Of a stretch of DNA of 34,356 nt, positions 28,275 through 34,356 are shown piece after piece. Positions within the stretch are counted from its first letter, which is position 1, and the number at the start of each line of letters is the position of its first letter. The DNA is from a virus (taxonomy: Duplodnaviria > Heunggongvirae > Uroviricota > Caudoviricetes). Location: IMG/VR virus record IMGVR_UViG_2684622669_000020. One strand, 5' to 3'. The notes below the pieces were generated by a model that was not told the origin of the DNA, ran no database searches, and saw nothing but the letters and a program-made list of their open reading frames with translations. Position numbers and translations under genes: made by a program.

Positions 28275-28354
28275 TTCTGTTTCTCCAGATTCAGGCGTAA
28301 GCCAGCCCCGACGGGTTTACGCCTGTTTTAAATAACAATTAAAAACAAATTAAA

Positions 28355-29672: not shown

Positions 29673-29832
29673 ATGATTTAAAAATAATTTCGTTCATAAA
29701 ACAGTGAGTTTTTATGATAATGTCGGAAACCTGCTCTCCCGTGACATCAGGCGGCAACTGATACGTCGCGACGGTTTTCTCCGGTTTACCTGGCCTGTCC
29801 AGGCTGAAAGTTAATTCAAGCTCCAGTGACAT
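29641..29832 (-). CDS. Hypothetical small protein
   Basis: 63-aa ORF in the early-gene array. Confidence 0.4.
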   Translation of the reverse strand: MSLELELTFSLDRPGKPEKTVATYQLPPDVTGEQVSDIIIKTHCFMNEIIFKSFDFKGEKHGG

Positions 29833-30109: not shown

Positions 30110-30349
30110 TTATTGCCATACGACGGTGCAGCCGTCGATACAGGACGTTTTAACCACGCGGCGCAGGCCGCTGAATCTCTGGATGATTTCCGTTACCGGC
30201 CATACAGGACCCCCCACGGGCGGGCAGGCATAAACCACAGGTAAACGGTGATGCTGTCCCGTTACACGGCCACCGGTGGTGTGGATGGCCACACGGGCAC
30301 GGGAACGGACGGCGTTAATGGTCTGCTTGTCCATCGTCTTGTTCTCCAT
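30110..30349 (-). CDS. Hypothetical small protein downstream of B
   Basis: 79-aa ORF; ATG overlaps the B stop (ATGA). Confidence 0.45.
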   Translation of the reverse strand: MENKTMDKQTINAVRSRARVAIHTTGGRVTGQHHRLPVVYACPPVGGPVWPVTEIIQRFSGLRRVVKTSCIDGCTVVWQ

Positions 30350-31242
30350 CAGTGAATTAACATTTCTGCGAAATCATCAATAGCCTGCACACTGACCGGC
30401 GCATCGCTGATATCACAAATCCGGTAGACCCCACGCACAAGTTTAAACAGGCGTCGGGCATTGCCCCGTGAGCGTGTGTAAAGTGCTTCACAGATTTCAG
30501 GCGCTGCTGCTTCCGGCATCAGTTCGGCGGCTATCTGGATGAAATCCTTCTGCGCCAGCGTATCGCCGAGGTCCAGCGAAAGAGCCACCCGACTGTATAG
30601 CTGCGCGAACTCCCCACGATTGCCTTTAAGATTAATCAACAGGCGCGGCATACCAGCCAGGGCAACACCGACGCCCGCCTTGTCATGCAGACGACGCAGA
30701 ACTTCCAGCGCACGATAGGGGAGCAGTTCGGCTTCATCCACCATCAGCAGGCGACCGGAGTCACGCAATTCGTGTACGCAGGCATTAATCAGTTCGTGAA
30801 TATTGCCGCGAACCTTTACCCCCAACTGGCGGCACAGTTCCTCCAGCAGTGTCCTGGCTGTATAGCCCGGGTCAGCCTCAATCAGTATTGCGTCCCGGTT
30901 TCTGGCGGCGTATTCGCGCAAAATCATTGTTTTGCCAAGACCTGCCGCGCCATACAACACGCTAATTTCACACTCCAGATGAGCATAGGCCAGCGCCTCC
31001 AGCCCTTTGGCGGCCATACCTGTAGTCACAAAACTTGCTTTTACACGCCGGTTGTTTTCTTTTTCCCGTTCACGGCTGACAAAGGCAGAAATTCGCTCTT
31101 CGATATCAGTGATATCGCCCTGATATTTACCCTGCAAATACTGGTTGATAACGGCGCTGCTACGACCAATAGCACGGGCAACGTGGGTCTGCGTATAGCC
31201 GCGACGGGCCATTACGTCATTTAATTGCGTAATTAAACTCAT
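30349..31242 (-). CDS. B: Transposition ATPase B (MuB-like)
   Basis: 297 aa; N-terminal HTH then Walker A GAAGLGKT and D-E motif MVDEAE; directly downstream of the transposase. Confidence 0.85.
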   Translation of the reverse strand: MSLITQLNDVMARRGYTQTHVARAIGRSSAVINQYLQGKYQGDITDIEERISAFVSREREKENNRRVKASFVTTGMAAKGLEALAYAHLECEISVLYGAAGLGKTMILREYAARNRDAILIEADPGYTARTLLEELCRQLGVKVRGNIHELINACVHELRDSGRLLMVDEAELLPYRALEVLRRLHDKAGVGVALAGMPRLLINLKGNRGEFAQLYSRVALSLDLGDTLAQKDFIQIAAELMPEAAAPEICEALYTRSRGNARRLFKLVRGVYRICDISDAPVSVQAIDDFAEMLIH

Positions 31243-31259: not shown

Positions 31260-33335
31260 TTAACGGTTGTTTGTGCCGTCTTTCTTTAAATTGCGGTCAC
31301 GCTCGGATGCAAAGAAATAAAGTTCTTCTTTTTTCTTTTCCTCCTTACGCTCCAGACCAAATCCAAAATTAAAGTCAGGTCTCTGCGTAATAGCCGGGGT
31401 AAGCTCGCGTTTAGCCTCTTCGATTTTCTGCGTGGCCCGTGCAATGCGGCCTCTGGCGCGTTTCTCCTGCTGCTGTTCGATAACAGCTTTCGGGAACGCA
31501 TCAACCTTATTACCGTTCCAGATGGCATCGCAGATATAAGAACCGTCCATCCGCCTGACAATCACGCTGTTTGCGTCGTGAATGTCGTAACAAACCCTGA
31601 CTTCATTTCCGTGCTCTGCTGCCAGTTCTGTGGAGAAATAGATGTTTCTGAATAACACCACTTCACCGCGTCGCACCGTGCAGATGCTTTCCGGTCGGAA
31701 CATTTCATGCAGTTCTTCCGGCGACAGCATGTCGATTTCAGCCTTTTGCTCTTTTATCAGTTTCCGGCGATACGCTGCCGGGCTGTAATGTTCGCCATCC
31801 TCTTTGCGGGGAAGGCTGCTGTGTGGCCGGTTGTTATACCGTTTCACCTCCAGCTCTATTGCGGCCATCAGTTGCTCAAAAGTGGGGACTTCTCCCATCG
31901 CTTTAACCTGCCGCTTTGTCAGCTCTTTCCCTTTGTGGGTGGCCTTAATGGCTGACTGTGTGATGCGTTGCTGCATCATCACCGTTTCCTTGTCTGCATT
32001 TTTTGAGCAGTACGTCTGGAAACTCAGGGCCACATCTTTGGGTATTCCTTTGTTTGCCCGTTCTATTACCCCGCGCCCCTGCGGGTTACCAGGTATCCCC
32101 GTGTGATGCTCCACACCCAGCCGGGGCAGAATCCCGGTAATATCGGCATCAAGCACCCGGTTTTTTTCACCGCCCCCGTTATCGGAGTAATAAATCAGCG
32201 GTATTCCGTGTTGTGACATGCCATGACGCAATGCATCAGCAACGGCTATCACGTTCTCCGACAGGGACAGCGACCAGCCCACAATAAAGCGTTGCCCCGC
32301 ATCCATAACCAGCGTCACTTCTGGCCGGAATGTATTCCCGGTGGCAGGGTTGAATGCCATCAGTTTCATACAGTGACCATCCCCGACCCATACCGCATTA
32401 ACCGGTAATGTGCTCCAGTCGCGCCGCACAAAGGGATTGAGCGAACGCCAGGCTGAGCCGGTGGAGCGGAAACGCTCCTTAACAATCACCGGGACGTTGC
32501 TTAACACCCGTCTTACTGCGTGAACTGAAGGCAGTGCTGCCAGCATTCCCGCATCGTTCGCGTGTTTTTCATGCCACCAGGCTGAAAACTCGCGATACGC
32601 ATATTCAACGGTCGGGCGCTTCCATGAGCGATAGAACATAAAGAAATCGCTCAACCACCAGACCTGCTCCCACGGTGTTCCCTTATGATGACCGGGAGCC
32701 AGTAACGCCAGTAACTGATTGGCATCACCGCGCGCCATCAGCCAGGCGGAATACCATTCCTGTAAACTCCCTGTACTGACGCCAGTTCGCTTACCCTGTC
32801 GGGCATTGGCGGTATTACCGGCCACAATAACGCGCTCGGGCAAAGCCCCCTGGCGGATACCATCAACGATGTGTTTTATCGCTGCTGTCCTGGACATTCC
32901 TGCGTATTCACGCAGTTTATGCACTTCGGTAGCCAGCAATATCCGCGCATCAGCGATGGCCTTTTGCTTGTCGGTCAGTGCCTGAACTTCGCGTAATGCC
33001 AGTTCCGGGCATTTGACCATCACTTCCAGTTCATCGCGAATGGTGACGTTCTTAACTGCCTTCTGCTCAACCACGGCGGGCAGTTGCGCATCTTCCAGAA
33101 CCTGATGGGTCAGGCGTTGACGTAAAACCTTCTGAACATCTTTAGGTAAACTGGATATATGGTACTCATATATTTTCCCCTGAACTCCAGACTTCCTTCT
33201 TCTTGTCCAGTTCGCTCGTTTAGCTTTTTGAGTGATCCCCTGTACAGTTTTCGGTAGCCCTTGAAGCCCTGTTAGTTCATTCAACGTAAACCATTCAGGT
33301 TCGAACTTGACTTCATAGTCGTTGTTCTTATTCAT
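31260..33335 (-). CDS. A: DDE transposase (MuA-like)
   Basis: 691 aa; N-terminal domain resembles the repressor N-terminus (LxGLxGLPxTxQGIxQKAKRxxW); central integrase-like catalytic region; followed by B. Confidence 0.9.
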   Translation of the reverse strand: MNKNNDYEVKFEPEWFTLNELTGLQGLPKTVQGITQKAKRANWTRRRKSGVQGKIYEYHISSLPKDVQKVLRQRLTHQVLEDAQLPAVVEQKAVKNVTIRDELEVMVKCPELALREVQALTDKQKAIADARILLATEVHKLREYAGMSRTAAIKHIVDGIRQGALPERVIVAGNTANARQGKRTGVSTGSLQEWYSAWLMARGDANQLLALLAPGHHKGTPWEQVWWLSDFFMFYRSWKRPTVEYAYREFSAWWHEKHANDAGMLAALPSVHAVRRVLSNVPVIVKERFRSTGSAWRSLNPFVRRDWSTLPVNAVWVGDGHCMKLMAFNPATGNTFRPEVTLVMDAGQRFIVGWSLSLSENVIAVADALRHGMSQHGIPLIYYSDNGGGEKNRVLDADITGILPRLGVEHHTGIPGNPQGRGVIERANKGIPKDVALSFQTYCSKNADKETVMMQQRITQSAIKATHKGKELTKRQVKAMGEVPTFEQLMAAIELEVKRYNNRPHSSLPRKEDGEHYSPAAYRRKLIKEQKAEIDMLSPEELHEMFRPESICTVRRGEVVLFRNIYFSTELAAEHGNEVRVCYDIHDANSVIVRRMDGSYICDAIWNGNKVDAFPKAVIEQQQEKRARGRIARATQKIEEAKRELTPAITQRPDFNFGFGLERKEEKKKEELYFFASERDRNLKKDGTNNR

Positions 33336-33531
33336 AACGTGATGGCCAAATTTCTTCTGGCTTTTTACCGATCACACTAGCGACAATCATTTCTGCTTTG
33401 GGCCATTTTGTACGTAGAACATTACCCAAACTTCTTGATTTCATTCCATGCTCTCGTGAAAGCCGACTAAAGTTTGTTCCTTTCTTTTCTAGTTCCGCCT
33501 TGATATCTGACGGATGCATATCTTGTCTCAC
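33328..33531 (-). CDS. ner: Ner-like DNA-binding protein
   Basis: 67 aa; C-terminal KWPKAEMIVASVIGKKPEEIWPSRYE closely matches the Mu Ner C-terminus; GTG start with GAGGTAGAG upstream (alternative ATG at 33519); overlaps the transposase start. Confidence 0.8.
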   Translation of the reverse strand: MRQDMHPSDIKAELEKKGTNFSRLSREHGMKSRSLGNVLRTKWPKAEMIVASVIGKKPEEIWPSRYE

Positions 33532-33777
33532 GTCTCTACCTCTTCACATAAATCAACAGATATGAGATCTTGAGTGATTACTCGCATGTGTACGCGATTG
33601 AGTTACTCACCTGCGTGAAGAATACTAGATTTAAACAATGTTTAAGTCAACATGTTTAAATCTATATTTAAAACATTTTAGTAAGCAGGTGGCTTATCAT
33701 TTTGTTTTTGAAGTAATTTTTGTGTTTTAAACAAAAGCTCTGTTTCATGCTCTTTTGTTTAAATCTAAGGGGTTAGA
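33532..33777. promoter_or_regulatory. Divergent c/ner operator-promoter region with repeated TGTTTAAA sites
   Basis: AT-rich 246-bp spacer between divergent c and ner; at least six copies of TGTTTAAA / TTTAAACA, including the near-palindrome TTTAAACAATGTTTAAG. Confidence 0.5.
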
Positions 33778-34356
33778 ATGAAACAAGAATGGGTTGCCGC
33801 AAAAGACCTGGTAGGGCTTCATGGTTTACCTGCCACAATTCAGGGAATTCACCAAAAAGCCAAAAGGGGCGGATGGCGCAAAGAGAAAAGAATTACACCT
33901 GGTGTGAAGGGACATCAGGTATACTTCTACTTGCCTGATTTGCCTGAAAAAATACGCTGCTCCTTGGTGTCGAAAGACAGAGAAACTCCAGTGAGGAATG
34001 ATTTAAACAAAGGGTTGATATCAATACTGGAAATGACATCCGCAGAAGATCAATTCAATCTTTTTCGCGCTTTGTGTGAATTTGGCATCAAAGGAGTCCT
34101 AGAACACCTACAACAACCCACCAGGCAAGCTACGCAGGCCGACAGCGACCAGGACGAACAGGAGAATGCCATCAGAAGTCTAAACATCAGGGAATCGCTT
34201 AAAGACGTTATATGTATGGCTCTAGATGGTAATGAAGAAACCGACAAAGAGATTTTGCGACGCATCGAATCTCGTGCACGGGCTGGGTCGCCAGGTGGTC
34301 AGACCGTTGCCACGCCGGAGCAAGAAACGAAGCCTGTAAGCAAAAAATCAGCATGA
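33778..34356 (+). CDS. c: Mu-type repressor c
   Basis: 192 aa; N-terminal domain similar to the transposase N-terminus; divergent from ner; AGGGG SD; stop codon is the last 3 nt of the window. Confidence 0.8.
   Translation: MKQEWVAAKDLVGLHGLPATIQGIHQKAKRGGWRKEKRITPGVKGHQVYFYLPDLPEKIRCSLVSKDRETPVRNDLNKGLISILEMTSAEDQFNLFRALCEFGIKGVLEHLQQPTRQATQADSDQDEQENAIRSLNIRESLKDVICMALDGNEETDKEILRRIESRARAGSPGGQTVATPEQETKPVSKKSA

Follow-up and report, generated by a model that had tools for sequence, protein, structure and literature searches.

D108 is heteroimmune with Mu, whose operator and enhancer include IHF as an integral component. The Mu/D108 immunity region reportedly includes the N-terminus of A, as Mizuuchi, Weisberg and Craigie are said to have described in 1986 (Nucleic Acids Res). 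In Mu, the control region lies between the leftward c and the rightward ner-A-B, about 1 kb from the left end, and comprises two clusters of short-repeat repressor sites some 90-95 bp apart, one covering the early promoter, the second located at or beside the start of c, with Ner sites annotated in the Mu record adjoining ner. The k-mer approach used for the locus described here also detects CTTTTC-type sites in Mu, with three copies in 891-927 and three in 982-1009, flanking a perfect IHF consensus at 947-959. The repressor and transposase of Mu, whose N-termini are homologous winged helices, share binding sites (PMC3145075), and the Mu transposition enhancer, ~1 kb from the left end, overlaps the operators (PMC3145075; PMC3820752); our comparison with Mu rests on these two papers, the Mu record and the k-mer analysis.

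Two further systems are relevant. The D108-like Escherichia phage PhiR68_1 has a motif of its own, TGAATACA, in two clusters, together with separate AGCTAC repeats adjoining ner; in the D108 type, the block formed by c, ner, the operators and the transposase N-terminus is distinct from that of Mu, and both c and A carry the recognition helix SISRKA. CI/XRE-type repressors are found in other E. coli Mu-like prophages (for example STEC316, locus L003, and E2348/69), which have the same backbone and the same B as the locus described here, and a c C-terminal domain 75-85% identical to its own. In L003 (189-3286), the repressor is of CI type and lacks similarity to the N-terminus of its own transposase, paired palindromes adjoin ner, and AAGAAAG repeats lie near c.

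We analysed a window of 34,356 nucleotides (IMG/VR record IMGVR_UViG_2684622669_000020) that carries a Mu-like prophage of E. coli. As in Mu, the region between the divergent c and ner-A-B genes contains two clusters of a short repeat, one over the predicted early promoter and one beside the start of c; candidate Ner sites adjoin ner, the N-termini of repressor and transposase are homologous winged helices, and the left end of the prophage is ~950 bp from the centre of the region. As in the D108 type, c, ner, the putative operators and the transposase N-terminus differ from Mu as a block, and c and A have a recognition helix in common. The specificity, however, is different. Whereas Mu has CTTTTC-type sites, the window motif is TGTTTAAA(T/A)C; the relationship to Mu is only distant, with 29% identity between the DNA-binding domains of the two c proteins and 22% between A and MuA; the perfect IHF consensus found between the clusters in Mu is absent; and the window has an additional high-scoring motif copy inside c. 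The D108-like phage likewise has a different motif, c DNA-binding domains ~40% identical to that of the window, and a different phage backbone, while L003 differs in its whole immunity cassette, with a Ner 45% identical, no TGTTTAAA sites and a perfect IHF consensus. We think it likely that the spacer is a lysis/lysogeny control region that follows the Mu plan but has a DNA specificity of its own, and in which the motif clusters would most likely also act as a transposition enhancer.

The prophage and the genes flanking the spacer

Prophage genes run right to left across the window, in Mu-like fashion, and the last base of the window is the end of the c stop codon. The same prophage is present in three of 5426 complete E. 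coli genomes at differing chromosomal sites, as expected of a transposable phage; depending on the strain, it adjoins yigF or lies inside alx. The diverging flanks of two insertions place its left end 300 bp past the c stop. A nucleotide search of isolated phages with 33200-34356 returned no match, and the backbone gave only partial matches (66-70%) to Klebsiella and Pseudomonas transposable phages, the Klebsiella relative having an unrelated repressor.

The flanking genes are those of the initial annotation, c and ner (Table 1). The Ner protein matches Pfam HTH_35 (E=1.7e-25) and, among PDB structures, Mu Ner (1NEQ, E=4e-14) and EnrR (7F9H). The N-terminus of the repressor (aa 1-65) is a Mu-type winged helix: it matches PF02316 (HTH_Tnp_Mu_1) with 30.7 bits against a cut-off of 23.3 bits, the MuA enhancer-binding domain 1TNS (E=5e-6), and the Mu repressor DNA-binding domain 1G4D/1QPM (E=5e-5), 1G4D being a Mu repressor-DNA complex. 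A Shine-Dalgarno sequence, AAGGGG (33767-33772), precedes c. The control region has a GC content of 25-31%. No terminators were found in 33300-34000, and a search of Rfam identified no family, its sole match (RAGATH-15, at 17 bits below the gathering score of 199.5) being noise. A 30-aa ORF at 33638-33730 (+), beginning MFKSTCLNLYLKHFSK, was judged probably spurious because it is composed of operator repeats.

Table 1. Positions of genes, predicted promoters and candidate binding sites in and around the c/ner spacer (window coordinates)
Feature	Position	Strand	Description
B	30349-31242	-	ORF list; Pfam AAA_22
Transposase A	31260-33335	-	ORF list; Pfam HTH_Tnp_Mu_1, rve, Mu-transpos_C
Immunity cassette	33135..34068		A codons 1 to ~67 (I-alpha winged helix), ner, spacer, c codons 1 to ~97
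ner	33328-33531	-	67 aa, GTG start; first gene of early operon; overlaps start of A
c/ner spacer	33532-33777		246 bp, between divergent c and ner-A-B operon
Candidate repressor promoter, version 1	33543..33571	+	TTCACA-17-GATCTT, TGn extension; weak
Candidate Ner operator N1	33577..33594		ATTAC-N8-GTACG
Candidate repressor promoter, version 2	33598..33626	+	TTGAGT-17-AATACT; -10 overlaps Pe -10
Candidate Ner operator N2	33602..33619		GTTAC-N8-GTGAA; covers predicted Pe start
Predicted early promoter Pe	33622..33650	-	-35 TTGACT (33650..33645), 17-nt spacer, -10 TAGTAT (33627..33622)
Putative operator cluster 1 (Mu O2 analogue)	33627..33675		S1-S4; 17.5-19.7 bits each
S1	33627-33640	-	
S2	33636-33649	+	
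S3	33650-33663	+	
S4	33662-33675	+	
Variable AT-rich spacer between clusters	33676..33719		where Mu has its IHF site
Putative operator cluster 2 (Mu O1 analogue)	33720..33766		S5 and S6; 19.7 and 19.5 bits
S5	33723-33736	-	palindromic TGTTTTAAACA; overlapping + copy 33720-33733
S6	33753-33766	+	abuts c ribosome-binding site
c repressor gene	33778-34356 (ATG 33778)	+	divergent from ner-A-B; with Shine-Dalgarno 33767..34356
S8	33999-34012	-	seventh motif copy, CTTTGTTTAAATCA; c codons 75-78; 20.5 bits

Motif copies and their selective conservation

The spacer contains four exact copies of TGTTTAAA, at 33630-33637(-), 33653-33660(+), 33726-33733(-) and 33756-33763(+), out of seven in the 34-kb window (1.08 expected), and four copies with one mismatch, at 33639(+), 33665(+), 33668(-) and 33723(+). 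Two of the latter overlap palindromic sites, and six distinct sites (S1-S6) therefore remain. At least six repeats had initially been annotated here, a count that holds when one-mismatch copies are included and falls to four for exact copies; the two stretches assigned to them (33630-33674 and 33726-33764) are correct, and the near-palindrome described among them is present, with arms GATTTAAACA and TGTTTAAGTC 1 nt apart. When the AT-rich spacer itself was shuffled 5000 times with its dinucleotides preserved, none of the shuffled sequences matched the observed four exact copies or eight copies at <=1 mismatch (shuffle means 0.06 and 1.16), and, in an unbiased test, at least four copies of any 8-mer arose in 14 of 2000 shuffles. 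The spacer also holds perfect 12-13-nt repeats, TTGTTTAAATCTA three times and CTTTTGTTTAAA twice. Sites were scored with a position matrix trained on 12 sites from the window and its Salmonella relative. Together, S1 and S2 form a 21-bp palindrome across the spacer and -35 element of the predicted early promoter.

Weaker copies, TGTTTCAT, were left out of the site count, the one at 33741-33751 because it is unconserved and the one at 33775-33785 because it lies within coding sequence. Elsewhere, in the early region, the matrix gave two moderate matches, one within 28275-28354 (15.7 bits) and one at 29674-29687 (15.5 bits), which may be chance; the former lies in an 80-bp AT-rich gap between ORFs, directly after a GC-rich hairpin (GGCGTAAGCC...TTACGCC).

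Relatives with this type of c DNA-binding domain comprise the prophage of E. coli E423, a Salmonella enterica prophage (CP019189, locus L012) and, with a 45-bp upstream fragment, a contig of SRR8048115. The Salmonella proteins are 59% (c), 89% (Ner) and 71% (A) identical to those of the window, and all six sites are found there at aligned positions, while the intervening sequence has diverged. Between window and Salmonella the motif cores are identical at 49 of 51 positions (96%), compared with 50 of 94 (53%) for the rest of 33622-33766 (Fisher p=2e-8) and 31 of 65 third codon positions of the c N-terminus. Even against E423, which is 96% identical overall, the cores match at 50 of 51 positions and the remainder at 71 of 94 (Fisher p=3e-4). 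The cluster 1 block is 88% identical to Salmonella and its flanks 56% and 45%. In cluster 2, S5 and S6 are kept in both E423 and Salmonella, and S6 is found in the SRR8048115 contig as well, a lineage whose c is 51% identical and which retains TGTTTAAATC directly upstream of the c ribosome-binding site. S3 and S4 show a reciprocal G/A exchange: they read TGTTTAAA and TATTTAAA in the window (33653-33672), TATTTAAA and TGTTTAAA in Salmonella (L012 3377-3396), and both are TGTTTAAA in E423.

A matrix scan of Mu, heteroimmune E. coli L003 and the further loci L007-L011, all of which have repressors with different DNA-binding domains, detected no motif cluster. As to additional relatives, genome contigs scanned with c and with the N-terminal alignment yielded none, viral and metagenome scans returned near-identical copies only, and a profile search with the 65-aa alignment gave no match. 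The DNA-binding domain is thus represented by only three independent lineages, and the comparative depth is small.

The seventh copy, S8, lies within c. It outscores all of the sites used to train the matrix, although it was itself outside the training set, and none of 20000 shuffles of the c gene reached 20 bits. S8 is present in all E. coli-type loci; in Salmonella a weaker site (L012 3722-3735, 13.4 bits) occupies the identical offset, +221 from the ATG, and in Mu and the D108-like phage only one-mismatch matches turned up, none of them a clear counterpart. S8 is possibly an auxiliary operator or a looping site.

Promoters, candidate Ner sites and the inter-cluster spacer

The initial annotation pointed out that this region of Mu holds early and repressor promoters. 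Promoter prediction on both strands yielded a strong match on the minus strand, Pe, which is predicted to transcribe ner-A-B, and on the plus strand only weak candidates of 6.4-6.9 bits, one of them unconserved. Pe is the only consensus promoter match in 33300-34000 and has by far the best PWM score, at the same aligned position, in the window (10.4 bits), E423 (10.4) and Salmonella (11.4; TTGACT-17-TAGCAT), with a start predicted at ~33615. S1 covers the Pe spacer and S2 its -35 element, so that bound repressor would be expected to exclude RNA polymerase, following the same logic as O2 and Pe of Mu. For the repressor promoter there are two candidates. The first (6.4 bits) has equivalents in E423 (6.4) and Salmonella (5.8); it would be convergent with Pe, giving transcripts that overlap by ~35 nt, a geometry resembling that of a second promoter annotated beside ner in the Mu record. 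The second has the top plus-strand score in both the window and E423 (6.9 bits) and is the one unconserved in Salmonella.

N1 and N2, of the form TTAC-N8-GTA, are likely Ner operators. In the window they constitute a direct repeat, TTACTCGCATGTGT and TTACTCACCTGCGT, 25 bp apart, and as palindromes they are degenerate, with clear palindromes only in Salmonella, where two clean GTTAC-N8-GTAAC sites, 26 bp from one another, occupy the corresponding place. Two GTTAT-N8-ATAAC sites are likewise found there in heteroimmune L003, and in E423 all three substitutions near N2 fall outside the half-sites. The paired sites beside ner in Salmonella, L003 and the D108-like phage support the view that Ner acts at the sites beside its gene and c at TGTTTAAA. 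Ner, however, is 89% identical to its Salmonella counterpart, yet the proposed Ner-site region is only 56% identical, which makes the assignment to Ner weaker than that of the c sites.

The AT-rich stretch between the two clusters is variable (45% identical to Salmonella). We detected no match at <=1 mismatch to the IHF consensus WATCAANNNNTTR between the clusters of the window; the best IHF-like match, AAACAAAATGATA at 33695-33707(-), has two mismatches. One-mismatch matches lie at the aligned place in E423 and Salmonella, and L003, like Mu, has a perfect consensus (2611-2623).

A shared recognition helix, an exchanged cassette and their interpretation

The N-termini of repressor and transposase show 40% identity across 60 aa (E=2e-12). 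When six sequences are aligned, both proteins of the window and both of Salmonella carry the helix QG(I/V)xQKAKR, whereas Mu c and MuA have AGVxYxA in its place. Similarity to other E. coli Mu-like prophages breaks off at two places: in A, the 91-96% similarity to 56 other E. coli genomes ends at window position 33134, and it resumes in 30 E. coli prophages only at ~34069, inside c. The L003 transposase follows the same pattern, being nearly identical beyond ~aa 70 (91% over the whole alignment) and diverged before. These boundaries indicate that Mu-like prophages of E. coli exchange a single cassette comprising the first ~67 codons of A, ner, the spacer and the first ~97 codons of c. Dozens of such prophages are 91-97% identical to the window outside the cassette, in the remainder of A, in B and in the C-terminal domain of c. 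The repressor is chimeric, its C-terminal half (34069-34356) being 75-85% identical to repressors with a CI-type (PF07022) or XRE-type HTH at the N-terminus.

The divergent c/ner-A-B context, the selective conservation of the motif cores, the absence of the motif from heteroimmune relatives and from Mu, and its overlap with Pe together argue for the Mu-style operator region that had been proposed from the sequence at the outset, and the six conserved TGTTTAAA copies are very probably repressor operators. The proposal that the region holds a transposition enhancer also gains ground. Since the transposase N-terminal domain is homologous to that of the repressor, with the same recognition helix, the clusters are most likely an enhancer as well; the homology, the lineage-specific helix, the co-swapped cassette and the position ~950 bp from the prophage end fit the picture known from Mu, and the six copies probably serve in both capacities.

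As to which protein binds each site, and to looping, competition and enhancer activity, we infer the following scheme. The N-terminal winged helix of c would bind the (A/T)TGTTTAAA(T/A)C copies of the two clusters, ~95 bp apart. Repressor on cluster 1, over the Pe -35 and spacer, would block access of RNA polymerase to ner-A-B and so maintain lysogeny, while repressor multimers probably bridge the clusters, and perhaps S8 too, looping out the variable AT-rich spacer. During lytic growth, Ner bound to the TTAC-N8-GTA pair directly beyond the Pe start would damp early transcription, and it probably also lowers transcription of c. Repressor and transposase would compete at the motif clusters.

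Two other readings concern the identity of the binding protein at the TGTTTAAA copies. That they are sites for host nucleoid proteins (IHF, Fis or H-NS), or simply AT-rich promoter or UP-element sequence, might be suggested by the low GC content of the region (25-31%) and by its TTTAAA-rich DNA, which is flexible and typical of nucleoid-associated protein sites. We nevertheless consider this highly improbable: the counts were never reached in local dinucleotide shuffles, in heteroimmune relatives from the same host, control regions that are just as AT-rich lack the motif, conservation is confined to cores of 8-11 bp, and these cores do not fit the IHF consensus. It is also very unlikely, in our judgement, that the copies are operators of Ner, acting in a Cro-like manner, with c binding elsewhere. 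Cluster 1 does overlap Pe, the expected target of Ner repression, and ner rides the same swapped cassette, so co-inheritance alone cannot tell Ner from c; nor does any E. coli prophage pair a window-type ner with another c, which means that natural recombinants cannot separate the Ner sites from the c sites. However, a separate TTAC-N8-GTA pair is situated directly beside ner, where Salmonella, L003 and the D108-like phage have paired palindromes of differing sequence and where the Ner sites of Mu are annotated. The number of TGTTTAAA sites, their mixed orientations and their two-cluster layout match the c/MuA sites of Mu (PMC3145075), and both S6, at c, and S8, inside c, are distant from Pe.

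A different question is whether repressor and transposase do share the sites, or whether the motif is bound solely by the transposase N-terminal domain, as a pure enhancer, or solely by c, as a pure operator. The two proteins are only 40% identical in the winged-helix domain, and the CI-type HTH of the L003 type is unrelated to the transposase N-terminus, indicating that site sharing is not obligatory in this group. Nevertheless, within this lineage c and A have almost the same recognition-helix segment, which differs from that of Mu, and shared binding is documented in Mu (PMC3145075); an exclusive use by either protein therefore seems unlikely to us.

With the TGTTTAAA copies read as operators for c that A probably also recognises, the locus would represent a third sequence-distinct immunity type on the Mu plan, beside Mu and D108. 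It may offer a readable recognition code, pairing the helix QGIxQKAKR with TGTTTAAA(T/A)C, and a natural experiment on how an operator evolves together with the repressor and transposase domains and is exchanged with them as a unit; orthogonal repressor/operator pairs or mini-Mu enhancer pairs are a possible use. The known picture of transposable phage regulation is unchanged, since the switch is of the ordinary Mu style and only its DNA specificity is new. More speculatively, the stretch 33135-34068 (~0.93 kb), which here couples a Mu-type winged helix with a C-terminal domain elsewhere paired with a CI/XRE-type HTH, might be a self-contained, transplantable specificity module in which S8 provides a third anchor ~240 bp away, giving a three-point loop formed by the repressor and possibly by the transposase. 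We know of no description of such a three-point arrangement for Mu.

Finally, the prophage left end lies outside the window (L001 4290-4457) and terminates in ...GATCACTACCCCACA. It carries three TCCAGA(A/T)TNGA-type repeats that are likely transposase end-binding sites, and these end repeats (TCCAGAATTGATC type) differ in motif from the putative operator sites.
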